Positions 1 through 44,399 of a stretch of 44,399 nucleotides of DNA are shown here, piece by piece; the stretch's first letter is position 1; every line of letters begins with the position of its first letter. Below the pieces are notes generated by a model, which ran no database searches, was not told the DNA's origin, and worked only from the letters and a program-made list of their open reading frames with translations. Source of the stretch: a virus; IMG/VR virus record IMGVR_UViG_3300039366_000017, one strand, 5' to 3'. Both the position numbers and the translations under genes were made by a program.

Positions 1-77
1 CACAGCCTGTATAGCTAGAGCGAGACCCGTAGTTACCGTAGGCTCTCTTAAGCATGTTAGCCCACAGGTCATAAATT
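1..77. repeat. Assembly overlap: exact copy of 44323..44399 (circularly closed contig, unit length 44322 bp)
   Basis: First 77 nt read identically to the last 77 nt. A minus-strand ORF and an intron continue seamlessly across the junction. Confidence 0.9.
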
Positions 78-346: not shown

Positions 347-554
347 AGTTATGTTCCTTATTAGTTGACGATGCTTCATATCTCTATGAAGACCAGACTA
401 TATCTTATACCAAAAGGTATCCCCATTTTTCGAGCTACTTAGCCCTACATAATAGTCGTTACACCTGCAATACGCTCGGCTCGGTATTGTCTTTCCTAGT
501 TAGGACTGAGTTCCACCGAATTTAAGGGGTTTAAAGACGACATGGTTAAAGTTT

Positions 555-1034
555 ATCGTCTGCGCAGATAATATCAGCACGAGAGCCTGTCAACTGTCCT
601 CTAATACCTACGGATTTAACTGAAGGTGAATGGTCCGGTTTGGCTGGCCCGACGTCAAAAAGGTTCTGAGTATCTCTCTGACCTTCACGAGCCTTCAGGT
701 GATCCAAGAAAGGAAGCTCATTGATGATCTTCTTAATAAAGGTTGCATTAGCATCAGCTCTTTCCTTATTAGCTGAGACAATCATAATCTTGAGCTGAGG
801 GTTCTTCCATAGGCACCATACTACATAAGCACAAGTAATGAAACTCTTAGCTACCCCTCGGAACCCCATAAGAATGAATCTATCATTAGGGGGATGCTGT
901 AGTGTCTTAGCAATATCTACCTGAATAGGAGTAGTCTGTGGTAACCCAATAGTCTGCCACACTAAGCTGCAGAACAATGGAAAACTATTAAAGTATGGAA
1001 TCAATGCTTTAGTTGACAAGGCCATTAGCTCCAT
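555..1034 (-). CDS. Terminase large subunit (T7 gp19-like), exon 1 (ATPase N-terminal part)
   Basis: Walker A-like GFRGVAKSF and Walker B ...[11 protein letters not shown]. The listed ORF 546..1034 runs 3 codons into the intron before stopping. Confidence 0.85.
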
Positions 1035-1498: not shown

Positions 1499-1899
1499 TA
1501 GTTCACACCTAAGAGACTCATAAAGTCAGCTTTCTTAAAGTGTGCTCCTTTAAGTAACTTTCCATCAGCTCTATAGGTAGGACAAAGGTTGCCATTGTCA
1601 TCAACCATCTTGCTCATGAATTCCTCTGCAAGAGCCTTCATGCCTAACTCAAGAGGATACTTATGTTCAATAGCATACATGATGCAAACCCAGATAAGAT
1701 CACAGAGTTCTTTGAAGTCCTCTGGGCAATCTGAAGCTTCCTCTGCCCATTCTTCAAACTCCTCAAGGATGAGCTTAAGATAGAGCTTTCCGTTCGTCCC
1801 TGAAGGGTGAGCCTTGTCGAACAATACTTGCATAGTGTCCGCAAGACCCTCCGTTGAATATTCTAAAGACCCGCTGATTGCTTGAGCCGTGGTATTCAT
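1498..1899 (-). CDS. MazG-like all-alpha nucleotide pyrophosphohydrolase candidate
   Basis: 133 aa with an acidic EEFEEWAEE...ELCDLIW pattern typical of MazG-type NTP-PPases. AAGGA lies 6 nt upstream of the ATG at 1899. Confidence 0.5.
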   Translation of the reverse strand: MNTTAQAISGSLEYSTEGLADTMQVLFDKAHPSGTNGKLYLKLILEEFEEWAEEASDCPEDFKELCDLIWVCIMYAIEHKYPLELGMKALAEEFMSKMVDDNGNLCPTYRADGKLLKGAHFKKADFMSLLGVN

Positions 1900-2305
1900 G
1901 TTTTTCCTTTTTATCTAATTCAAATTTACCATCAATGAGAACATCAACATAATCCAAGATGGGTTCATCTTTGATATCCTCATAGGTACGTCCTGTCCAT
2001 AACCAGATTCTCTTAGTGTCCCCATAGACATCCCTCACACGCTTCAGGATTTGCTCTACAGCGTGTTTGTTATAGGGTTCTAAGGGGTCACCACCTAAGA
2101 TACTCAATCGTTCAATATAGGGCGATTTAAGAGCATCTAGGAGGGTGTCTAGAGTATCTTCAGTGAACTCTTGACCGTATTGGGGATCCTGAGCTTTCTT
2201 GTTGAAGCACCCTCGGCAGCATAAGGAGCATCCTGAGACAAACAGGTCTATCCCCATGCCATCCCCATTAGTCATACTACAGGTATCTATCTTAGCGTAG
2301 TTCAT
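1775..2305 (-). CDS. nrdG: Anaerobic ribonucleotide reductase activating enzyme (radical SAM)
   Basis: CSLCCRGC (CX3CX2C) cluster motif, GGDPL, and the C-terminal DGKF...GSSNQRV motif as in E. coli NrdG. It lies directly downstream of nrdD. Confidence 0.85.
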   Translation of the reverse strand: MNYAKIDTCSMTNGDGMGIDLFVSGCSLCCRGCFNKKAQDPQYGQEFTEDTLDTLLDALKSPYIERLSILGGDPLEPYNKHAVEQILKRVRDVYGDTKRIWLWTGRTYEDIKDEPILDYVDVLIDGKFELDKKEKHEYHGSSNQRVFRIFNGGSCGHYASIVRQGSPFRDERKALS

Positions 2306-2307
2306 CG

Positions 2308-3240
2308 TTACATTGATACTCTGTCTTTAATTTCAGCTAACTTAGCATCGTTCATACGAGTACTGCCATTAGCTTTGGTGTACCCCAAGTATCCGCAAAC
2401 ACGACTAATGACAGACAAGTTAGTAGATCCACAATGGGGACACTTATTCATGACATTAGTTGAATGCTCACCGCAGTCTTCACAATAGACACTATCAAAG
2501 TTAATACCCTGATAGAACCCTTTCTCCATACCTCGTAAGATCAGTGCCTTAAGTGCCTGAAGGTTCTCAGGGTTAGTCACACGGACATACTGAATGTGGC
2601 CTCCGTTGCACATATGGAACATCTTGTATTCAGCATCCTGTTTCTCAAAAGGGGTGATAGGTTCATTAACGTGCATATGGAAGCTGTTAGTGAAGTATTC
2701 TCCAAACTGATGGTCACCTGTGTAATCAGCATATTGTTTAGCTTGAACCCCACAAAGGTTCTCTGCAGGGGTACCATAGACAGCATAAAGGTATCCATCT
2801 TCTTTCTTGAACTGCTCTACCTTATCATTGATATGCTTAAGTACACCCTCAGCAAACCAAGGATCCTGATAGAGTGTCTTACCAGTAGCAAGGATATTAA
2901 GTTCATTGAGGGCAGTAACACCAAAGGATGCAGTCATGTAGTTGACCAAATCACCAATCTCATCGTCTGCCTTAAGGTTCCCCTTATAGAACCCTCCTTG
3001 CATGAATGCCATAGGATTGGTACAAGCTTTAGTGTGTCTGATGATATCATAGCGTTTCTTAAAGAAATTACGGATAGTCTCAAGTCGTACATCAAGGACA
3101 TTGAAGAAGTCTACGTTATTCTTTAGAGAGTAGGCCAAAATAAGAGGGAGATTAAGAGACACTGCCCCAATGTTGCATCGACCGTTAGTGATCCATTCAC
3201 CATTCTCGGGATCCTTCCACGGACTGAGGTAAGCTCTACA
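2308..3240 (-). CDS. nrdD: Anaerobic ribonucleoside-triphosphate reductase, exon 3
   Basis: Starts CRAYLSPW (completing PMG-CR). Contains the Zn ribbon CEDCG..CPHCGS and the glycyl-radical motif RVCGYLG. Confidence 0.85.
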   Translation of the reverse strand, partial: CRAYLSPWKDPENGEWITNGRCNIGAVSLNLPLILAYSLKNNVDFFNVLDVRLETIRNFFKKRYDIIRHTKACTNPMAFMQGGFYKGNLKADDEIGDLVNYMTASFGVTALNELNILATGKTLYQDPWFAEGVLKHINDKVEQFKKEDGYLYAVYGTPAENLCGVQAKQYADYTGDHQFGEYFTNSFHMHVNEPITPFEKQDAEYKMFHMCNGGHIQYVRVTNPENLQALKALILRGMEKGFYQGINFDSVYCEDCGEHSTNVMNKCPHCGSTNLSVISRVCGYLGYTKANGSTRMNDAKLAEIKDRVSM

Positions 3241-4032
3241 CATTATATTCATATAGGTTCGTTACTCCTATACCGTTTATTAAACTGCTCATAGTCACCT
3301 ATGAGATTAGACTATATCTTCTGAGGACTGAGCCTCAGTTCCGCTTTTCGATTCACTTGAATCTACACCCTTACATTCATCAGGGTTAGTCGTTGGGCAT
3401 TCACATCGAACAACACGAATCCCAAGCTCAGGCAGCTTTCCACTATAGAAGCGTAAGACTGTTTTAATACGCTCTACAGGAAGCCCTAAACTATGGGCAC
3501 ATTCAGTCATAGAATCAAAGTACACCTTAGGCTCTGTGGTAATATATACTGGCTGTTTCTTGAACTTAGTAGAAGGGTCTCTAACAGTTTCCCGATAGCC
3601 CTTCTTAATGTTCTCACTTTGGGTAACCCATCGCAGATTAGTGTACATGTTATTAGTCTTATCCCCATCGATATGGTCTACAACCAACCCTTCTTGCTTA
3701 CCTTTTACAAAAAGTGTAGCAACAATCTGATGAGTATACAAAGACTTACGCCGAATCTTACCATTAGCACTACTAAAGAGATCACAACGGGCATAGCCAT
3801 TGTTATTCATAGTCTGAGCTTTGATTCGATTATAGCGTTTAGAGAAGATTCTCCCCATGTTAGAGACACAATAAAGGTTCTCCCATTCAGGGACATCTTT
3901 CCAAATTTCTTGATTATTAGTGTTGTTCATATTATATACGTAGTTATACGTTCAATAAAAGTGTTTAGCAACGGATTTGCTTAATATAAGCTCTCCCCGT
4001 TTTAACGGAATTTTATATGGGCAGTATTACGC
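3241..4032 (-). mobile_element. Group I intron 2 of nrdD (792 nt) carrying an HNH endonuclease ORF
   Basis: Exon AUGGGU pairs with guide GCCCAU (U-G at the junction, exon ends at 4033). R-like GGTGTAGA and S-like AGATATAGTC lie at the 3' end. The intron ends ..ATAATG with G at 3241. Confidence 0.8.
3307..3930 (-). CDS. HNH homing endonuclease (NUMOD4-like N-terminus plus HNH_3-like core)
   Basis: WKDVPEWENLYCVSNMGRIFS and VVDHIDGDKTNNMYTNLRWVTQSEN. The last codons run into the intron S element. Confidence 0.85.
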   Translation of the reverse strand: MNNTNNQEIWKDVPEWENLYCVSNMGRIFSKRYNRIKAQTMNNNGYARCDLFSSANGKIRRKSLYTHQIVATLFVKGKQEGLVVDHIDGDKTNNMYTNLRWVTQSENIKKGYRETVRDPSTKFKKQPVYITTEPKVYFDSMTECAHSLGLPVERIKTVLRFYSGKLPELGIRVVRCECPTTNPDECKGVDSSESKSGTEAQSSEDIV

Positions 4033-4578
4033 ACCCATAGGAGTAACTACTTGCTTATTCTCCATGTACTGTTTGCCTACAGAACTGTGTGCCCAATCCC
4101 CAGTTAAACTGAGGAAATCAGGGTACATGCACTTACTGGAGCATTCAATAGCTAACTCAAAGACATCCGAAGCTTCAATAGACCCCCCTACGCAGTCTTC
4201 ATCATACAAGTAGACTAGCTTAGGGAACACTACAGGCTTATGGTTCTCCCCGTGGCCATTCATGCGGGTCTTAAGGATAGCCTCACAAACTGCCTTAAGA
4301 AAGAGCTTGTCTTTATTGGTTAACTCTGGGTCATTCCAACAGCCGAAGGACACTGTAGTAAACGCAAAGTCACCTCGTGAACAGGGGACGGTATTAAGTT
4401 TCAACTCAAGAGACTGAAAGCCTTGCTTAAGTTCATCCTGAAGAGTACGCCAAGCGTACACATGGAGCTGCACTTCAGTTGCCCCGGGGAAACTATTGCT
4501 CGCCTGCTTGTATGCCTTATTCCAAGTCTTATGACAGTATGGCAGAAGAACCATATCAATTTGGGAGATTGTAAAACC
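4033..4578 (-). CDS. nrdD: Anaerobic ribonucleoside-triphosphate reductase, exon 2
   Basis: In-frame extension upstream of the listed ORF gives GFTISQIDMVLLPY. It ends ...VVTPMG immediately before the catalytic Cys codon. Confidence 0.8.
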
Positions 4579-5350
4579 CAGCGGAATCTCCCTAAACCGC
4601 TCTGTGGACTATCTCTTAAGCATTACTGCTTGTGTGCGCTTCGACCGGTAACCACTTCCGGCCTACTCTACTCACCTTTCGGATTTCGATAGTCTCTACA
4701 CCTTCTGCAAGAGTCTTAGCGATAATCTCAGGGTGACTGTAGTAGTAATTCACAGTAATTCCCGCTGCTTTGCAGGCATCCTTGATACTACCATATGTGA
4801 TCCCCTGATACATGCATTTCTTAGCTACTCCCGGCTTCTTACCTTTCATTCCATCAGAGTTTTCAGACCAAGACAACCACCTAAGGTTCTCGACCCTGTT
4901 GTCCTGTCGGTTCCTGTTCATGTGATCTACACAATAACTAGGATCAGGCTTAGGACCAAGAAAGGTCTCTGCTACAACCTGATGAACCTTCTTGTAGATT
5001 CGCTTCTTGTTGATAGAGAAAAGGATTTCAAAGTAGCCATCTTTGTCTACCTTATACGAAAGCTTCTTAGGAGCTCTTGTATAGTCAATCCTCTTATCAG
5101 GAGTAGATTTAGCGGCCGGTTTCCTGAACGAGACTACCTCTCCATCTTTAGAGACAAAGTAGCCTTCATAGGGAGTAGAAAAATATTTATCGATTTGCAT
5201 GTATGAATACCTCTTGTAGCTTGGCACGGGATTCCTTTCGGTTCCCCGTTAGCTGAAATCATATTAACAATATGGGGGCGTATCCCCTAAATTTCAACAC
5301 CGCAAGTCATGCGTTCACACACTTTTAATTCGGCAGTTTCTATTGATCGC
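4579..5350 (-). mobile_element. Group I intron 1 of nrdD (772 nt) carrying an HNH endonuclease ORF
   Basis: Exon UUCGGU (ends at 5351) pairs with guide GCCGAA. R-like GGTGTAGAGACTAT and S-like TAAGAGATAGTCC are present. The terminal G is at 4579. Confidence 0.8.
4616..5227 (-). CDS. HNH homing endonuclease
   Basis: YCVDHMNRNRQDNRVENLRWLSWSEN motif. The C-terminal ~30 codons overlap the R/P8/S region of the intron core. Confidence 0.85.
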   Translation of the reverse strand: MPSYKRYSYMQIDKYFSTPYEGYFVSKDGEVVSFRKPAAKSTPDKRIDYTRAPKKLSYKVDKDGYFEILFSINKKRIYKKVHQVVAETFLGPKPDPSYCVDHMNRNRQDNRVENLRWLSWSENSDGMKGKKPGVAKKCMYQGITYGSIKDACKAAGITVNYYYSHPEIIAKTLAEGVETIEIRKVSRVGRKWLPVEAHTSSNA

Positions 5351-5995
5351 ACCGAACTGTTGAGCTGTAGCAACTAAGGTGATATCTCCAATTACCTGAA
5401 GTGCACTCAATACACTCGTAGGTTCCGTGTAGTCCACATTGGACATACTAAAGCCACCCCTAAGGACATTCCCAATATCAAACAGGCAGCAATTGACAGA
5501 ACCCATGAGCATATCTCGCATATCGTGAATGTAGATATCGCCACGCTTAGTTAACTCTTTTTCTTCCTTGCTAAGATAGAATTGTCGATAGAGCTCTTTT
5601 GTAAGGTATCCCTTAATGAGCGAGCCTTTTGTTGACACCAGAGAGCTATCGAAGTTAGCATTCTCTCTGTCCCCAAGTAGAAGCACGTTATCAGCTTCAT
5701 CTTTAACTTTCTCAAATGATTTAGCATAAGTATTCTTATAGTCTCTATATTCTTGATATGAATTCGCTACATCAGTCAACCCAAAGTACTTCAAGTAATG
5801 AATTACTTCCTTATGAAGGTCTTTAGTTGGGGCATCTCTATCAATAATTAAACAAGAGTGAACTTTCTCAACCAGTTTGTTAAGAACATCAGGCTCCACA
5901 TATTGATTCACTCTAGCAGCCGCCTTATAGACAGCTTCTTTGATCTTCTCTCCGTTCCAGCCTTCTACAGTACCGTCTTTCTTAATAATCTTCAT
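5351..5995 (-). CDS. nrdD: Anaerobic ribonucleoside-triphosphate reductase, exon 1 (ATP-cone and N-terminal part)
   Basis: MKIIKKDGTVEGWNGEKIKEAV is an ATP-cone-like start. It ends ..TAQQFG, and joined to exon 2 gives QQFG-GFT. Confidence 0.8.
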
Positions 5996-24150: not shown

Positions 24151-24619
24151 TTACACCCCCTGTTCCTGTTGAGCTTTGTTGTTGTCAATTGCCATCTGAG
24201 CCTGAGCATCAACACCCTGTTGTGCCGCATACTGCTCCATCATAGCCTGCTGTTCCTGAGCAACCTGTTCAGGAGACTTAACGAGACCCGTAGCATCAAT
24301 CTGAGCACTCGTGAAGATACGCATAGCTAAGTTCTGCTGATTGATCATCTGCATGATATCAGGGAACTGAGCAAGTACCTGAAGTGCCTGAGACAAGTTA
24401 GCAAAGTCATGACCACGACCCAAGGCATCAACACCAGTGATGACCGTAGGTTCAATCGTAGCGAACTGCTCAGAGATAGTCGGAAGGCTGCCATTAGACT
24501 GCATCTGATTGAAGATACAGGACACTAAAGGCAACTGAAGTTCCTGAGACAGGAGACTATAGACACCCCCTAAGGTATCCTCAAGTTCCTGAGCCATATA
24601 TCTGATTTCTTCTGCTGTT
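24151..24619 (-). CDS. Portal protein (T7 gp8-like), exon 2
   Basis: The reading frame is open upstream of the listed ATG, giving (V)TAEEIRYMAQELEDTLGGVYSLLSQELQLPLV, as in T7 gp8. Confidence 0.85.
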
Positions 24620-25368
24620 CTTTAATATTATCGGGGAGGCGTTACTTCCCCACTTATAGTTACCTATAAGAATAGACTATATCTTACCTAAAGGTTTCTA
24701 CATTTCGAGCCACTTGGCTCTACTCCTTTCGGATAGTCGTTACACTCACTTAACCTTCTTAGCACCTGTAACCCTAGCCCAAGATTTACCCTTCCAAATA
24801 TTTTGGATAGTCCCACGAGAAACGTCTATTTTGTGGCGATTCTTAAACTGTGTAGGCGTCAATCCACTATCTCGGAATTTGTAAATAAAGAGTACTTCTT
24901 CCGTAGTTAGCTTATGCGTCCCAATAAGTTCCCCATGTTGTTCCATGTGTAAACCGTTGCCCCAACAGTGTCGAATATTCTGTTTAGCAGTACACCACTC
25001 TAGGTTGCCCACAGAGTTGTTATAACGGTTCCCATCCTTGTGATTAACTTGAGGGTAATTATTAGGATTTGGAATAAATGCTTGAGCAACAAGACGATGC
25101 AAAGGGATAAACTTAGAGCAATGATCTGCACCTAAATGTACCTTCACATATCTGTTTGTCTTGGTTATAGATGTACCTTTAATCCATTTGCCATTATCCT
25201 CATTAAAGATTGTTCCATCTTCAAATAAGGTATAATTATGGACACATGGAAAAGGCAATAATTCATTAAGGTTGGTTTTTCTCATAGTTAAAAACCTCGT
25301 TAGCTCGGTATTGTCCCAGAGGGATGTTCACCGAATTAGTAGAATTTATAGAGAGCCACTTTTATTTA
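24620..25368 (-). mobile_element. Group I intron in the portal gene (749 nt) carrying an HNH endonuclease ORF
   Basis: Exon AGAGGGU (ends at 25369) pairs with guide GCUCUCU (25356..25350), with U-G at the junction. P AATTCGGTGAAC, Q ATACCGAGCT, R GTGTAACGACTAT and S TAAGATATAGTC are present. The terminal G is at 24620. Confidence 0.8.
24746..25285 (-). CDS. HNH homing endonuclease (179 aa), inserted between the Q and R elements of the portal intron
   Basis: HRLVAQAFIPNPNNYPQVNHKDGNRYNNSVGNLEWCTAKQN motif. Confidence 0.85.
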   Translation of the reverse strand: MRKTNLNELLPFPCVHNYTLFEDGTIFNEDNGKWIKGTSITKTNRYVKVHLGADHCSKFIPLHRLVAQAFIPNPNNYPQVNHKDGNRYNNSVGNLEWCTAKQNIRHCWGNGLHMEQHGELIGTHKLTTEEVLFIYKFRDSGLTPTQFKNRHKIDVSRGTIQNIWKGKSWARVTGAKKVK

Positions 25369-26486
25369 ACCCTCTCAGCCTGCCGTTGCACACTAGAATT
25401 AAGCATGAAGCAATAAGACAATCTCTGTTCGATACCCTGAGATACCGCATAGCAGCCCTGAAGGTCAGTCTGTTTGTTTGTCTGCATTGCAACAATATCG
25501 TCCTGTCGACCTCTTACGAAAGCCCCATTCTCAGCTTTAGTAAGAGCCTTAATGTTAGTCTGACAGGAAGGAGACACTAGGTACAATACCTTAGCACAAA
25601 TCATAGCCATATCGTTAATGGCATGCTGAAGGTTCTCTAAAGAGATCAAGTCACCAAGGTAATCTTCAACAAAGGATCGACCATAGGATTCCCCATCTTT
25701 CTTAGTGAATCTCACAGGGATCCAAGGACATTTGCCATAGGGATACGTCTGTTCTGATCCGGGGATAATGGTATTATTTACTTCCTGATAGGATTCCCAA
25801 GTGGATCCCTCTAAGGTATCCCCACGGACAAGATAGGTATGAGTGTAGATGTTAACCTTCTCAGAACGATTAACCTCATTACCTGCATTGCCTAAAAGAC
25901 TTAAGATACTCGGAGGGATAGTCCCCTGAGCTAAAGTATCTCTAGCGACAATCTGAAGTACATTGCCGATAGCATCTCTTTCAACTACAAAGTTTCTGAG
26001 AGTGTAGCACTTCATGCCACCCTCTAGAGGAGGCAAAAAGAGCAACGCATTGCCAGCAATAATGAGCTGCTTGATGCACTCAAAGAGCGTAGGTCTAAGA
26101 CCATTATGCTCCATATACTTCACCATAGCAGCCTCCATCATAGACAAGCCGTACTCTATGGCATCCTTAACCTGATCATTGCCAGATGCCTGTAGTGCCT
26201 CATTAGATGCAGTATCTAACCCAAGTCTAAAGAAAGGCTGACCCGGGGGAAGCAAAGATAACAACAACTTAGATGCTAAGTTATTGAGACCTCTAGCCCC
26301 AATAGAATTATAAGGTGTCGTATAGGCAGTGCCACCATCATCAGATTCCTTAGGGAACAACTGAGGGATAGTATAGGTAGCATTCTTCTCTGCTCTCTGG
26401 GTATACTGATCTCTGTCCGTAGACAATCTTTCGTATACCTTTTGTGCACCTTCAGCAGTTTGATTACCTAGTTTAGTTTCTGCCAT
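25369..26486 (-). CDS. Portal protein (T7 gp8-like), exon 1
   Basis: VYERL..DR..Y..RA, GARGLNNLASKL, ESYGRSFVEDYLGDLISLENLQ and ...MLNSSVQRQAERV parallel T7 gp8. Confidence 0.9.
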
Positions 26487-31072: not shown

Positions 31073-32698
31073 CTAGAATGGGCAGTCACCTAAGCCATCC
31101 TCAAATGGGCAATCGTAGTCCTTTAGTCGGCCTGTTTCGGGATCATAATAGAGATAACCACCTATACCAGTCAAACCACTGAAACGATTCTTAAGTACTC
31201 TAATGGCCATGACATTAGGATTATCTCCCTGTTGATTCCTCTCCAGGCCAATCACCATATCTGCAAGCTGAGCGATAGCACCGGAACCCCTAAGTTGACT
31301 TAAAGACACCTGAGCTCCTTCTTCGTGACCTTTCTTATCGGGGCGCTTAAGGTGACTAACAACATACATAGTACACCCTGTTTCTTCAACAAGGGATCTA
31401 AGGTTTGTCATTAGTTTGTCAATAGCTTTACGCTCCCCGCCATCGTCACTATTGTCCATACCAGAGACAACAATAGAGATATGGTCTAGGAAGATTCTCT
31501 TGCATCCTAAAGCTACGATCATGTATCTAAGCTTACTAAGCAGATTCCCAGAATCAAGTGATCCAAAGTGATCATAGAGGAAGAACTTTCCGTTGCCAAT
31601 CGTGACATCAAAAGCACTCTTGAGTTCTTCTTTAGAAACACTATCGGGATCCACGCTGATAATGAGACGTCTATTAAGAAATATGGACATAAGTTCAAGT
31701 CCCGTCTTTGCCGTAGATTCCTCAAGAGCAACCACGCCACAAGTCTCGCCTTTAGAGACACCAAAGAAATATTCAAGCTCTCTGAGTAAAGTGGATTTTC
31801 CCATACCTGATCCTGAGGTAATGACATAAAGCTCACCGTGTCTAGCACCGTTTGTCTTGCTTTGGAGAGCTTGAAAAGGATAGGCCACACTGTCTTTAAG
31901 ACTATCAAGACCTTCCACACACTTCTCATAGAGATCTTGACCTGAAACAATTCCATCAGGTCTGTAAGGCTTAGCGTTCCATATGGCCGATACAAGGTCA
32001 CCTGATCTCCCAGCCTTAAGACACTCATTAGGATCCTTAAGAGGTAGATTAGCAATGTACGCTTTACCCACTGGGAGAATCTTTGCACAATCTTCACATG
32101 CTTTACGTCCCGGATCATCCATATCAAACATTAGGATGATCTCTTCAAAGTTATTTAGATACTCTAGGTTAGCTTCAATGGCTTTCCTAGCAGCCTGAGC
32201 ACCATTAGGGATAGACACTACAGGCCACTTATTGCCTTGCATTTGAGACACACTAAGGGCATCTATCTCACCCTCAGTGATTACTAGTTTCTTACCACTA
32301 GACCACAACTGAGAACCATAGAGGCACCCAGAGATCTTCCCTAGTACAGCAAAAGACTTATCAGGGAATCTAAGCTTTTGTCCTACAAGAGAACCCTTGT
32401 CATCATAGTAGCAAGCCACTTGACAAGGGTTACCCTTATACTCCCCCACGAAATACTTTAGCTTAGTACAAGTATCTTTAGTGATACCCCTAGCAGGCAA
32501 AGCAGAGATCTGTAGTTCCTCTAAAGGAATCATATTGGATGCTGACATCTTTACCCCCTTGGGTTTGTCCAAAGATCCATCAGGTCTAAAATAAGTGGTA
32601 CAGCTATAGCAATACTTATGACCGTCACTAAAAACAGCAAGAGCATCACTAGAGCCGCAATTAGGACAAGGCTCATGGTGCAGAAAGGTCGATTCCAT
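31073..32698 (-). CDS. Primase-helicase (T7 gp4-like, 541 aa)
   Basis: Zn ribbon CPNCGSSD..CYSC, TOPRIM EGEIDALS / FDMDDPG, Walker A GSGMGKST, Walker B IFLDHIS. Confidence 0.95.
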   Translation of the reverse strand: MESTFLHHEPCPNCGSSDALAVFSDGHKYCYSCTTYFRPDGSLDKPKGVKMSASNMIPLEELQISALPARGITKDTCTKLKYFVGEYKGNPCQVACYYDDKGSLVGQKLRFPDKSFAVLGKISGCLYGSQLWSSGKKLVITEGEIDALSVSQMQGNKWPVVSIPNGAQAARKAIEANLEYLNNFEEIILMFDMDDPGRKACEDCAKILPVGKAYIANLPLKDPNECLKAGRSGDLVSAIWNAKPYRPDGIVSGQDLYEKCVEGLDSLKDSVAYPFQALQSKTNGARHGELYVITSGSGMGKSTLLRELEYFFGVSKGETCGVVALEESTAKTGLELMSIFLNRRLIISVDPDSVSKEELKSAFDVTIGNGKFFLYDHFGSLDSGNLLSKLRYMIVALGCKRIFLDHISIVVSGMDNSDDGGERKAIDKLMTNLRSLVEETGCTMYVVSHLKRPDKKGHEEGAQVSLSQLRGSGAIAQLADMVIGLERNQQGDNPNVMAIRVLKNRFSGLTGIGGYLYYDPETGRLKDYDCPFEDGLGDCPF

Positions 32699-34310
32699 GA
32701 TCTAGCATATAACGTGCACTTTGGAAATCACGAAGGTTATATTGAAAGCCTGTATCAAAGCTGTATCGGCACTGATGTTCAAAAGGTGTCATATGCCCAC
32801 TATCAATAAGCCGCTTAGCAAGAGTAAGGTCCTTTAGGATATCCGGCTTAGACCCATCGTGATTAAGGTAAGACACTCGGGCACAACGTGCAGCAGAGAT
32901 AAGTGTGAGAATCCGCAGATCATCGATAGCATCCATCTCATCAAAGTTCACATACGGAAGCGTACGCCCCCCGTGAGCATTGATATAAATGTAGGTGTTG
33001 CTAACGGCATTCATAGCCATCTTAATAGCCTTAGCAAGGTGCTGGATCTCTGGATCAGCATCAGGAGACAACCGGAGATCAAAGAAATTGCTCCACTCAG
33101 TAGCAGTGACAATAACTTTAATCTTAGTGAAGGGCTCAAGGATGCGATTGATGTGCTGCTTATGAAACCCATTGTCAATCATCTTATGAGCAACCTCGAT
33201 TGCCTTAAATGCAGCATCTTGCCACTCTTCACAAAAGATATCATAGTCCTCTTCATTGACAATATCTTTGCCTTGCATGCCCTTGCAATTCTTATAGACA
33301 TCCGAAGGCACCCAAGGATCATTCAAGATATTCTGAATAGTTCGCTCTACAGGTACCGCACGCGAGCTAGAGGCATTACGACTGAAACAGTTATGCACTG
33401 TAATCCCGTTTGCTAGGAAGTTATGGTATTCAGATGAAACCGAAATATCAAATACCTCTTCTTCACCAACATACTCAATGGAATCTACCTCTACTGCCAT
33501 AACATTACATTGGCTAACACCTTGCCAACCCTGCTTACTATGCCTGAGCTTATGACAATCCTGACAAAGTGCAACCACATTATTAATGTCAAAAGCAAGA
33601 TCAGGGTTTTCATACCTCGGAATCACGTGATGAATTTCTAAAGGCTTGTTCTCAGCACCACAATCAGCACATCGAAACCCCTGCCTTTCAGACACTTCAG
33701 GCTTAACCTTTTTATTCCAACAAGAAACCCATTCTCCATTAATCTTCTTGTAAGGATCAAAACGAAGTTCTGTATACTTCTTACGAGTATTGCAGTACAC
33801 CTTATCTCTACCTACAGCAATGTCCTGCAACTCCTTCCAACCACTATCAGTAAGAATTAGATGGTCTGCAGTGCAAGTTACGGAGAAATCTCCTGCTGTA
33901 ATCTTATACACAGGCTTAACCCCAACCTTCCAACAATCAGTAATGGTCGTGTGAGTAACTTCCATCGTAGACTCATCCACAGAACGAAGACGCATCTTGT
34001 TCAAACGACCTTTCATGTCATATCGCCGTACTCCGCCCCATCGAGTAGCATGAGGGGAACTACCGTTTTCCCACTTATCCCAAAAATCTCCCAGTGTAAT
34101 TTGATAGGATCTGTGTTTGCTACCCCTGCTTCCACTAGGGAGATCGAAAGTCAGCACTGTATCTGCAGTGAGGCACCTGTGTGTCATGAATTCACTATGG
34201 ATGAAACGAGGATACTCCAATTCAAACGTATAGAGGTTATCCCAGCGTGCACGAATGATAGCTTTAGAGTTACCTACGCAATAGACCTTAGAGATAGGAT
34301 CATCACTCAT
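32673..34310 (-). CDS. thyX: ThyX-like FAD-dependent thymidylate synthase precursor containing an in-frame intein
   Basis: FMTHR-[intein]-CFSRNASSSRAVP reconstitutes a ThyX RHRxxSxxxxSxR-type motif. Also has ..INRILEPF..TATEWSNFFDLR..EIQHLA. The start is set at MSDDPISK (GAGGAGG upstream); the listed M-rich extension is discounted. Confidence 0.75.
   Translation of the reverse strand: MSDDPISKVYCVGNSKAIIRARWDNLYTFELEYPRFIHSEFMTHRCLTADTVLTFDLPSGSRGSKHRSYQITLGDFWDKWENGSSPHATRWGGVRRYDMKGRLNKMRLRSVDESTMEVTHTTITDCWKVGVKPVYKITAGDFSVTCTADHLILTDSGWKELQDIAVGRDKVYCNTRKKYTELRFDPYKKINGEWVSCWNKKVKPEVSERQGFRCADCGAENKPLEIHHVIPRYENPDLAFDINNVVALCQDCHKLRHSKQGWQGVSQCNVMAVEVDSIEYVGEEEVFDISVSSEYHNFLANGITVHNCFSRNASSSRAVPVERTIQNILNDPWVPSDVYKNCKGMQGKDIVNEEDYDIFCEEWQDAAFKAIEVAHKMIDNGFHKQHINRILEPFTKIKVIVTATEWSNFFDLRLSPDADPEIQHLAKAIKMAMNAVSNTYIYINAHGGRTLPYVNFDEMDAIDDLRILTLISAARCARVSYLNHDGSKPDILKDLTLAKRLIDSGHMTPFEHQCRYSFDTGFQYNLRDFQSARYMLDHGIDLSAP
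33390..34175 (-). mobile_element. HNH-type intein (262 aa) within ThyX
   Basis: Starts CLTADTVL (block A) and has TADH (block B TxxH). Central CADCG...HHVIPRYENPDLAFDINNVVALCQDCHKLRH is an HNH motif. Ends VFDISV..NGITVHN followed by the +1 Cys. Confidence 0.8.
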
Positions 34311-34473
34311 CTTCATCATCCTCCTCATCAATCTCATCATCAGCATCATCTTCAGAATCTAGGAAGGCTTCATATTCATACTCCCACTTCTCTTTCTGAT
34401 TGTTGTGAAGCTCATCACGATATGAATCTCCATCAGGATAATGCCAATCTGATTTACGTTCAATAGGTTCCAT
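34303..34473 (-). CDS. Small highly acidic protein (56 aa; below the ORF-track cutoff)
   Basis: Hand translation gives MEPIERKSDWHYPDGDSYRDELHNNQKEKWEYEYEAFLDSEDDADDEIDEEDDEDE. The stop overlaps the thyX start. Confidence 0.45.
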   Translation of the reverse strand: MEPIERKSDWHYPDGDSYRDELHNNQKEKWEYEYEAFLDSEDDADDEIDEEDDEDE

Positions 34474-34510: not shown

Positions 34511-34595
34511 TGGTAGGCCGAGGGGGATTCGAACCCCCATGCTCTAAGCGGCGCATTTTAAGTGCGCTGAGTCTCACCAATTTCTCCATCAGCCC
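34511..34595 (-). tRNA. tRNA-Leu (anticodon UAA), class II, CCA encoded
   Basis: The reverse complement folds as GGGCTGA-TG-GAG/AAATTGGTGAGA/CTC-A-GCGCA/CTTAAAA/TGCGC-variable arm-GGGGG/TTCGAAT/CCCCC-TCGGCCT-A-CCA. The acceptor stem has 2 G-U pairs. Confidence 0.8.
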
Positions 34596-42475: not shown

Positions 42476-42988
42476 TTATCTTGTAAACTTGTATCCCTCT
42501 GAATATTTGTATTTATTGAATCCCTTGGAAGTACCTGATTCTCTTACATTTTCTGTAATTGTATTTATTCCTAATTTCCCCCCTATTTCTCTAGTTACGA
42601 ATCCATAAAAACTTTCTAAAGATTCCTCTAGCCATTCTGAAGTTACTTCATTTATTCCTTCATCAGCATCAATTCCCATGAAGTCTACTAAATACTTGAC
42701 ACCTATAGCTAGGCAATCGATAGCGTCATCGTGAACTAGTGCTCCTCTGTCTGATGTGATTCTAGTCAGCTGATAGAACAGGGAGTACTTATAGTCACCT
42801 TCAGGTACACTATCGATATCCTTATTGATGCACTCAGGGGTAACTATCATCTTATGGTTACCTAGGACAGGCTCTAGTGTGTCTATGATACGTACTTCTT
42901 TTTGGCCTGTAGACTTGACTTCAGTTAAGCCACAGTCTTTATAAGTTTTCCTAAGGACAGGCTCAAAGAGCTTGAGGTACATACCATC
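42476..42988 (-). CDS. Terminase large subunit, exon 3 (nuclease domain C-terminal part)
   Basis: Starts DGMYLKLFEPVL (completing NFG-DGM). Contains YSLFYQLTRITSDRGALVHDDAIDCLAIG, as in T7 gp19. Confidence 0.85.
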   Translation of the reverse strand, partial: DGMYLKLFEPVLRKTYKDCGLTEVKSTGQKEVRIIDTLEPVLGNHKMIVTPECINKDIDSVPEGDYKYSLFYQLTRITSDRGALVHDDAIDCLAIGVKYLVDFMGIDADEGINEVTSEWLEESLESFYGFVTREIGGKLGINTITENVRESGTSKGFNKYKYSEGYKFTR

Positions 42989-43301
42989 CATTATGTTTAC
43001 ATAAGTTCGTTACGCTTATGCCTTGGGGCTATACATTACTGTATAGATCGGACTATATCTTAACAATAGCTAATCTTCCAACCTCTTCTACCACGAATAC
43101 CTTTATAGAGGAGGTTTCTTATATTACCTCTAGCAAATCCTAGAGTATCTGCACATTATTCTTATAGCTATTGTTCCCACTTTTTCAGATCACTTGATCT
43201 TACAATTAGTCTCTACACCTTCCTATTTCTAGGCTTGGCTCGGTATCGTCCCTTAGGGAGTTTCACCGAATTTAATGGGTTTTATTTCGGCAATGTTGTT
43301 T
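42989..43301 (-). mobile_element. ORF-less group I intron 2 of the terminase large-subunit gene (313 nt)
   Basis: Exon UUCGGU (ends at 43302) pairs with guide GCCGAA. Contains P TTAAATTCGGTGAAAC, the TCCC-TAA-GGGA hairpin, Q GATACCGAGCC, the CCTA-GAAA-TAGG hairpin, R GGTGTAGAGACTAA and S TTAAGATATAGTCC. It ends ..ATAATG with G at 42989. Confidence 0.85.
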
Positions 43302-44090
43302 ACCGAAGTTACCTTCAATGACTACCTCATTAACCTTCCATTTCTTAGCAGTGCTCGCTAGTTTATTTAGGACTACATCAGAGTAGCCTCCCATAAGTCC
43401 TCCTGCATCCATCAGATAGATGTATCCATTGAGGTAATATAGGATGCAATAGGCCGTGGCATCACGTCCACGCCCCGAGGGATCAACTGCCATCATCTTA
43501 TAGGTATACTTCTCCATCTCAGGTGAAGCTGTATGGCACCTATAATAGGCATCACCCTTTAGTCCCATTACCTTTGGGATCTCCTGAAGGGAGACCTTAC
43601 GAGCAGGATCAGGCATCCATGTAAGCTTCATAGGTGCTTCATCTGTACTGAAGGTGCCTACAATGAGGTCTCTAAGTCTCAATGGATACTTATCAGCATC
43701 AGATAAGCTAGTGTCTAACATGAACTGGAGTAGGAAGCCTGCTCTTCTATATGACAGCTCTCGTTTCTGTAGATCCTCTTCATTGAATCTAAGGGGATCT
43801 GTAGGCTTACCTGCGTACTTCTGAGGGTTACTATCGTACTTATCTGCAATGAACTTAGCTAGGCGTGTACCATAGTTAGCTCTCTGGGTCTCATCATAAG
43901 GATATCTTGCAGGGTAGATGATAGCAGTGTACCCTCTCTCCTGAAGCTCATTATAGAGAGACATTTCATTCTGAGGAGTACCAAGGTAAATGATGGTGCC
44001 ATTAGGTTTGATAACAGCGTCAAACTCCTTCACCAACTCGAATAGCTGATCTCGAAGAACCTGAGTAAATGAATTAGATGGAACTTCCAC
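43302..44090 (-). CDS. Terminase large subunit, exon 2
   Basis: Starts VEVPSNS (GTG is the first exon codon, not a start codon). Contains IYLGTPQNEMSLY, KYPLRLRDLIV and MAVDPSGRG, and ends ..EGNFG. Confidence 0.85.
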
Positions 44091-44322: not shown

Positions 44323-44399
44323 CACAGCCTGTATAGCTAGAGCGAGACCCGTAGTTACCGTAGGCTCTCTTAAGCATGTTAGCCCACAGGTCATAAATT
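44323..44399. repeat. Assembly overlap: exact copy of 1..77
   Basis: Identical 77-mer at both window ends. Confidence 0.9.

Follow-up and report, generated by a model that had tools for sequence, protein, structure and literature searches.

Group I introns of the IA2 type that carry a homing endonuclease gene are well known from genes for DNA polymerase in T7-like phages. The PhiI, W31 and Pf-WMP3 DNA polymerase introns were placed in this subgroup on the strength of the lack of P2, the P7.1 and P7.2 hairpins joined by G-U-A, and an endonuclease open reading frame (ORF) within P6a (PMC3428280). Group I introns also interrupt essential late or virion genes, including capsid and tail genes of cluster J mycobacteriophages, the tail tube gene of Twort and the capsid genes of SerPounce and Claudi (PMC3706429; PMC11878797), and a 2025 survey remarks on a concentration of phage introns in nucleotide- and DNA-metabolism genes (PMC11878797). 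We analyzed a 44,399-nucleotide (nt) stretch of viral DNA, IMG/VR virus record IMGVR_UViG_3300039366_000017 (hereafter the window), in which an earlier note had proposed that a 749-nt group I intron with an HNH homing endonuclease gene interrupts the portal (head-to-tail connector) gene. Our analysis indicates that the portal gene of this T7-like (Autographiviridae-type) gut phage very probably carries a mobile IA2-type group I intron and that its transcript would be spliced to encode one portal protein.

Compared with the DNA polymerase introns of T7-like phages (Jarilo, phiEa1H/phiEa100 and DU_RP_I homologues), the portal intron has the same ribozyme architecture, a similar core, an endonuclease of the HNH class and a host in the same phage family, but it differs in its host gene, its target site (the ERVTAEEIR codons of the portal) and its guide sequence. 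The structural-gene introns mentioned above differ from it in the gene that is interrupted. Splicing and nicking were shown experimentally for Pf-WMP3, whereas for the portal intron they are predicted from the sequence. No described portal intron in Autographiviridae was found in the literature searched, and the searched part of the 2025 phage-intron catalogue holds no portal or connector intron (PMC11878797). Counterparts of the locus occur in Phimunavirus phages of Pectobacterium (PP90 orf38-40, Nobby gp35-37 and loci in Slant, Clickz, Koot and others), where the order 'head-tail connector / HNH / head-tail connector' was published as ORFs split by a homing endonuclease and not as an intron (PMC6115819). 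The Phimunavirus intron lies at the identical codon, with GAAAGGGU before it, AAAG at its 3′ end and AACCGC after it, so that the product reads ERV and TAEEIR on the two sides. It has a homologous IA2-type core and a related HNH ORF, 46-48% identical in amino acids (aa), which is likewise located in P6a. However, the Phimunavirus portals are 31% identical to the portal described here and come from another subfamily (Corkvirinae), and the introns are alike in the core only. We delimited a group I intron of 725-726 nt in PP90 and Nobby (PP90 locus 2378..3103), and deleting it yields a portal of 503 aa. Further HNH genes adjoin the scaffold and capsid genes of PP90. What is new here is the host gene and the site; homologous loci are already in GenBank, mis-annotated, in about 34 Pectobacterium phage records.

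In the portal gene, which lies on the minus strand of the window, an exon 1 of 1118 nt (26486..25369) and an exon 2 of 469 nt with its stop codon (24619..24151) flank the 749-nt intron (25368..24620). The earlier note had started from two portal ORFs separated by an HNH ORF, and all three are present. The 5′ piece (25362..26486, 374 aa) matches the PF12236 Head-tail_con profile over positions 3-371 with 194.2 bits, the 3′ piece (24151..24597, 148 aa) matches it over positions 379-486 with 55.3 bits, and the ORF between them matches HNH_3. The listed 3′ ORF begins only at an internal AUG at 24597, inside exon 2. On the minus strand, exon 1 ends with GCUGAGAGGGU (25369) and the intron starts with UAAAUAAAAGUGGCUCUCU, whereas the intron ends with AUAUUAAAG (24620) and exon 2 continues with AACAGCAGAAGAAAUC. 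Read in the RNA sense, the 5′ boundary falls between GCUGAGAGGGU and UAAAUAAAAGUGGCUCUCUAUAAAUUCUACUAAUUCGGUG and the 3′ boundary between CCUCCCCGAUAAUAUUAAAG and AACAGCAGAAGAAAUCAGAUAUAUGGCU. Exon 1 ends with GAG AGG GU and exon 2 starts with A ACA GCA GAA GAA AUC; exon 1 is collinear with an intron-less allele (L001).

Deletion of 25368..24620 leaves an open frame of 1587 nt that encodes 528 aa, with QRQAERVTAEEIRYMAQELEDTLGGVYS across the junction. The expected ligated-exon junction is GGCUGAGAGGGUAACAGCAGAAGAAAUC, in which the exon 1 end GCUGAGAGGGU is joined to AACAGCAGAAG. The sole close relative in GenBank, MT835557.1 (an uncultured phage from human faeces), is 97.7% identical in nucleotides on either side and is without the middle piece. 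Its uninterrupted portal of 529 aa aligns end to end with the 528-aa spliced product. As this intron-less allele sets the same boundaries in a 97.7%-identical phage, and as covariance models match the insert (see below), the observation of an interrupted portal gene lies far beyond chance. The spliced protein gives one continuous match to PF12236 of 284.3 bits (profile positions 3-486 of 489), more than the sum of the two pieces scored separately (194.2 + 55.3 bits). Solved portals also match the spliced product: 7Y1C (9.3e-142) reads LNSAVQRTGERVTAEEIRYVASELEDTLGGVYS across the junction without a gap, and the alignment with T7 gp8 (6R21, 6.6e-138) is continuous through it. The exact splice sites, the T7-family junction sequence quoted in the earlier note, and the prediction of a 528-aa spliced portal containing ERVTAEEIR were all borne out. 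The insertion site itself, ERVTAEEIR, is the most conserved stretch of the protein.

By its sequence features the insert is a subgroup IA2-type group I intron, from its first base, U25368, to the terminal G at 24620, and it is missing from intron-less alleles. The 5′ strand of P1, AGAGGGU, is exonic (25369..25375) and pairs with the internal guide sequence GCUCUCU (25350..25356), which places U25369 in a U·G pair at the 5′ splice site. The 5′ core (25299..25344) comprises the P3 5′ strand UUCUAC (25344..25339), J3/4 UAAU, P4 UCGGUG (25334..25329) with its 3′ partner P4′ UACCGA (25310..25305) and P5 UCCC/GGGA between the two, and the P6 5′ strand GCUAAC (25304..25299). The 3′ core (24653..24749) begins with the P6 3′ strand GUGAGU (24749..24744) and the P7 5′ strand GACUA (24738..24734), whose 3′ strand is UAGUC (24679..24675). 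Between the P7 strands are P7.1 UCC-GAAA-GGA (24733..24724), a GUA linker, P7.2 GAGCC-AAGU-GGCUC (24720..24707), P3′ GUAGAA (24701..24696), P8 ACC-UUUA-GGU (24695..24686) and J8/7 AAGAUA. P9, CUUAUAG-GUAA-CUAUAAG (24670..24653), is followed by a peripheral P9.x hairpin, GGGGA...UCCCC (24651..24633), and then by the 3′ tail to the terminal G (region 24620..24651). The P9.x hairpin was also scored as terminator-like on the plus strand. The IA2 signature is present: UCCGAAAGGA-GUA-GAGCCAAGUGGCUC occupies 24733..24707 with both hairpins co-varying, P2 is lacking and the endonuclease ORF is in P6a.

Two covariance models, R1 for the 5′ half and R2 for the 3′ half, were built solely from introns of other phages and contained no window sequence. 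R1 matched 25303..25375 with 75.4 bits (E = 6.7e-16) and R2 matched 24652..24745 with 92.6 bits (E = 1.3e-17). RNAalifold, applied to 11 ORF-deleted homologues, predicted P1, P3, P4, P5, P7.1, P7.2, P9 and P9.x, and compensatory (two-sided) changes occur in 24 of the 46 pairs. P6, P7 and P8 were added by hand, and the PP90 and Nobby helices were threaded by hand because MAFFT misplaced P8 and P7.1; with these helices included, 572 of 582 base-pair cells are canonical and most of the variable positions change in a compensatory manner. The U·G pair at the 5′ splice site is unchanged in 11/11 homologues while other P1 positions change in compensatory fashion, and every homologue ends in AARG; the terminal G of the intron itself is at 24620. 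The ribozyme fold is thus a covarying one, which upholds the group I identity put forward in the earlier note together with its P1 pairing, its U·G at the junction, its terminal G and its placement of the endonuclease ORF between the Q and R elements, here P4′ ('Q') and P7 ('R').

A blastn search with the ORF-deleted intron returned the phiEa1H/phiEa100 DNA polymerase introns (E = 3e-11), that of Jarilo (E = 6e-8) and also DU_RP_I, and the core of the capsid-gene intron of Bacillus phage SerPounce is 73% identical to the portal intron over 124 nt. The 3′ half of the portal intron may also resemble that of the T4 td intron. An alternative fold in which CUAACGAGGUUU or CUAAGAAGGUU pairs with AAACCUUUAG, putting the ORF in P8 or in a very long P6, was rejected because its topology clashes with P3 and P7 and the homologues lend it no support. 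Klebsiella phage RCIP0053 (L003, OR532847.1) has an intron core at 2501..3060 that is 83% identical over about 110 nt; it is situated among 'hypothetical' ORFs, downstream of a 542-aa ORF.

The P6a loop contains a 540-nt ORF (24746..25285, minus strand) for a 179-aa I-HmuI-like HNH homing endonuclease. The protein matches PF13392 HNH_3 with 34.8 bits against a curated cut-off of 24.8, and its sole solved relative is I-HmuI (1U3E, E = 3.1e-7). The catalytic H..N..N residues are kept, VNHKDGNRYNN...NLEW...N in the ORF aligning with VDHKDGNKDNN...NLRW...N in I-HmuI. Like the portal intron ORF, I-HmuI, which is encoded by the SPO1 DNA polymerase intron, has an N-terminal HNH_3 motif and a length of about 175-180 aa. 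However, the alignment is confined to residues 18-115, no sequence relationship is seen in the C-terminal DNA-binding part and the target gene differs. Like I-HmuI, the related I-HmuII, I-BasI and I-TwoI are nicking HNH homing endonucleases. The endonuclease AUG is preceded, 9 nt upstream, by a Shine-Dalgarno-like GAGG, and the UGA stop codon falls within the P6 3′ strand. The endonuclease ORF is intact in all examined unique copies of two intron variants described below and in PP90, and the HNH catalytic motif is conserved across all three. Our analysis predicts that the 179-aa protein is a site-specific homing endonuclease that would act on intron-less portal alleles. Indirect evidence for such an activity comes from the presence or absence of the intron among alleles and from the synonymous exon differences close to the site, both described below.

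The distribution of the intron was examined in an IMG/VR population of near-identical phages, mostly from one sample, whose portals are 96-100% identical. The portal site is polymorphic in this population, with 18 empty alleles, 12 alleles carrying variant 1 of the intron (748-749 nt; the window is included here) and 4 carrying variant 2 (752 nt). Variant 2 is 72% identical to variant 1 and occupies the same insertion site. The two variants sit in differing exon backgrounds and P1 co-varies with them, such that the exon and guide sequences are AGAGGGU/GCUCUCU in variant 1, ACAGGGU/GCUCUGU in variant 2 and AAGGGU/GCCCUU in PP90. All intron-bearing alleles have AGGGU upstream of the site and AACAGCAGA downstream, whereas intron-less alleles have CGUGU followed by AACGGCUGA or AGAGU followed by GACAGCAGA. 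The intron-less sites read GAACGTGTAACGGCTGAAGAG or AGAGATAGAGTGACAGCAGAG, with GCTGAACGTGTAACGGCTGAAGAGATT in type A and AGAGATAGAGTGACAGCAGAGGAGATC in type B. All exon differences that track the intron are synonymous, and they reach no farther than about 6 nt upstream and 15 nt or so downstream of the site, a pattern that the P1 requirement together with short co-conversion or target immunity would be expected to produce. We also considered a diverged tract of about 36 nt upstream of the site (NSSV-QRQAERV versus SSTTAQITRDRV) as a co-conversion tract. Because intron-less alleles of either type are present, this tract was taken to be an independent exon polymorphism.

Within the population the intron is found in 16 large contigs, which range in length from 14-76 kb and mostly measure 23-44 kb; several, at 40-44 kb, are near complete. 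The next-closest 57 portals (62-73% aa identity) are all uninterrupted. A search with the endonuclease, however, identified three contigs of another lineage (L134-L136) that contain an intron 88% identical in nucleotides at the same codon, although the portal is 62% identical in aa and the exons 67-73% in nt. Since the intron is more similar than the exons that flank it, it reached this site by horizontal transfer. Thus, the element has spread to distant portals. Taken together with the related intron in Phimunavirus, these distributions show that the portal intron is mobile.

From the sequence we would predict catalytic splicing, as well as endonuclease activity and the strand and site of its cleavage, and the following pathway is proposed. 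The portal gene would be transcribed through as a single pre-mRNA, in which the intron RNA would fold into P1 and P3-P9, with no P2 and with P7.1 and P7.2. A guanosine cofactor would attack after U25369 of the P1 U·G pair, and the freed exon 1 would then attack after the terminal G 24620, linking GAGAGGGU to AACAGC. Translation of the ligated mRNA would give the 528-aa portal with the junction AERV-TAEEIRY. The HNH endonuclease would be translated from the P6a loop of the unspliced or excised RNA. During mixed infection the enzyme would nick or cut intron-less portal alleles near the ERVTAEEIR-coding site, and recombinational repair from an intron-bearing genome would transfer the intron, together with a few bases of the adjoining exons, to the recipient (homing). 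Because the portal is essential and the intron is present in 16 large contigs, many of them apparently complete genomes, we infer that virion assembly depends on RNA splicing.

Several observations weigh against a spliced group I intron. The exon comparison alone permits a +1 shift of the boundaries, as GUU followed by ACA would still read V-T; the boundaries reported here were chosen because only they leave a G at the end of the intron, in keeping with the terminal-G rule. The whole intron scored 25 bits against Rfam RF00028 (E = 4.8e-4), short of the gathering score of 50, because the 540-nt ORF in P6a breaks the model. The internal alignment of this partial match was unreliable and was not used for helix assignment. 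ORF-less homologues with the same core do exceed the RF00028 gathering score (SerPounce, 83.8 bits; DU_RP_I, 62.9 bits). Our reading of the intron sequence gave no convincing P10, in which the 3′ exon would pair with the guide sequence, and P6a in this intron variant has only about 5 bp. The ligated-exon sequence was also absent from the metagenome contig collection that was scanned; contigs say nothing about RNA, but this result lends no positive support to splicing. The lack of an evident P10 and the minimal P6a and P8 would suit a decayed group I intron that no longer self-splices, in which case a host or phage protein cofactor would be needed or the contigs would be defective genomes, and certain phage group I introns do splice in vivo but not in vitro (PMC11878797). 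We consider decay very unlikely, given that the core helices are all retained by compensatory changes across variants that are 72-88% identical. Moreover, 16 contigs of the population (some as long as 40-44 kb and near complete) and 3 of the distant lineage carry the intron, and non-splicing copies would not last at such a frequency in an essential gene.

The two portal pieces are both listed as ORFs, the second with its own AUG at 24597, and GenBank presents PP90, Nobby and their relatives with two portal coding sequences and one HNH coding sequence. These annotations fit a truly split portal, in which a free-standing HNH gene was inserted and the halves are translated separately into two chains without RNA splicing. 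Such an arrangement is highly improbable, however, because the insert holds a complete group I core with covariation, its boundaries restore the frame exactly and satisfy the U·G and terminal-G rules, and the exon partner co-varies with the guide sequence between variants. Separate translation would also lose the invariant TAEEIRY and gain a stray K, AUG 24597 is not preceded by a canonical Shine-Dalgarno motif, and no promoter or terminator signal above chance was found in the region. An assembly chimera or artefact would accord with the window being a metagenome-type assembly whose ends overlap by 77 nt. The chance of this is negligible, as the insertion recurs at the same base in contigs that come independently from at least two IMG samples (3300045988 and 3300000297), in another phage lineage and in Pectobacterium phages that were cultured and sequenced. 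An intein was ruled out as the identity of the portal insert by its in-frame stop codons.

A spliced, mobile group I intron in the portal gene is a sound new example of a well-known sort of mobile element in an unusual host gene and does not amount to biology of a new kind. It does correct the annotation, in that the portal of this phage, like that of about 34 Pectobacterium phages with deposited genomes, would be one spliced gene and not two genes with a stray HNH gene, and it extends by the portal the short list of virion genes in which group I introns are known. Introns in structural genes have to be allowed for by gene callers and by those who engineer T7-like phages. The metagenomic population amounts to a natural homing experiment, with empty sites, two rival lineages, a change of guide, conversion tracts and transfer to portals that are 62% and 31% identical. 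We also considered whether the intron serves as a weapon of interference competition, with the HNH endonuclease cutting the portal gene of intron-less, near-identical T7-like gut phages that co-infect the same cell; this proposal is doubtful. If it were true, the two diverged intron lineages, each fitted to a particular exon allele and guide sequence, would persist as competing alleles immune to one another, and this phage group, which has four other introns and an intein in a 44-kb genome, would be a natural arena of homing-element warfare over an essential virion gene.

Inspection of the remainder of the window revealed further elements of this kind. The window ends in an exact 77-nt terminal repeat (1..77 and 44323..44399), and we take it on this basis to be a genome of 44,322 bp that is either circular or terminally redundant. 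The large terminase gene contains two group I introns, and this gene and one of the intron ORFs span the contig ends. One terminase intron (42989..43301, minus strand, 313 nt) is ORF-less and scores 80.7 bits against RF00028, above the gathering score. It lies between ORFs 43272..44090 and 42476..42991 and splits the T7-type RNaseH-like nuclease domain of the terminase. Frame analysis places the end of exon 1 at U43302, and removal of 43301..42989 joins IEGNFG to DGMYLKLFEP. The second terminase intron (minus strand) extends from about 565 across the contig junction to 44091, following an N-terminal ATPase-like ORF (546..1034). Its core (373..585) scores 47.5 bits with Rfam, just below gathering (E = 5.4e-10), and 46.7 and 75.4 bits with custom models. 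This intron contains a 191-aa ORF, running from 346 around the contig ends to 44093, which has no Pfam match and may be for a new endonuclease of the intron-encoded sort.

The anaerobic ribonucleotide reductase gene, nrdD (region 2308..5995, minus strand), is in three pieces, 5315..5995, 4027..4554 and 2308..3252, which match Pfam NRDD positions 1-106, 114-263 and 264-560, respectively. Its two inserts contain HNH_3 ORFs on the minus strand, at 4616..5227 and, with NUMOD4, at 3307..3930. Neither insert gave a match to the 5′ half of the intron model, but there was a weak 3′-half match of 30 bits at 4581..4701 and a strong one of 64 bits at 3287..3398. An ORF for an NrdG-like radical SAM activase (1775..2305) follows nrdD. 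The ORF for ThyX (Thy1, flavin-dependent thymidylate synthase; 32673..34349, minus strand, 558 aa) includes an intein splicing domain and an HNH endonuclease domain, by which the gene is predicted to carry a homing intein. A tRNA gene with a long variable arm (34514..34595, minus strand; Rfam, 51 bits) is also present in the DNA-metabolism region.

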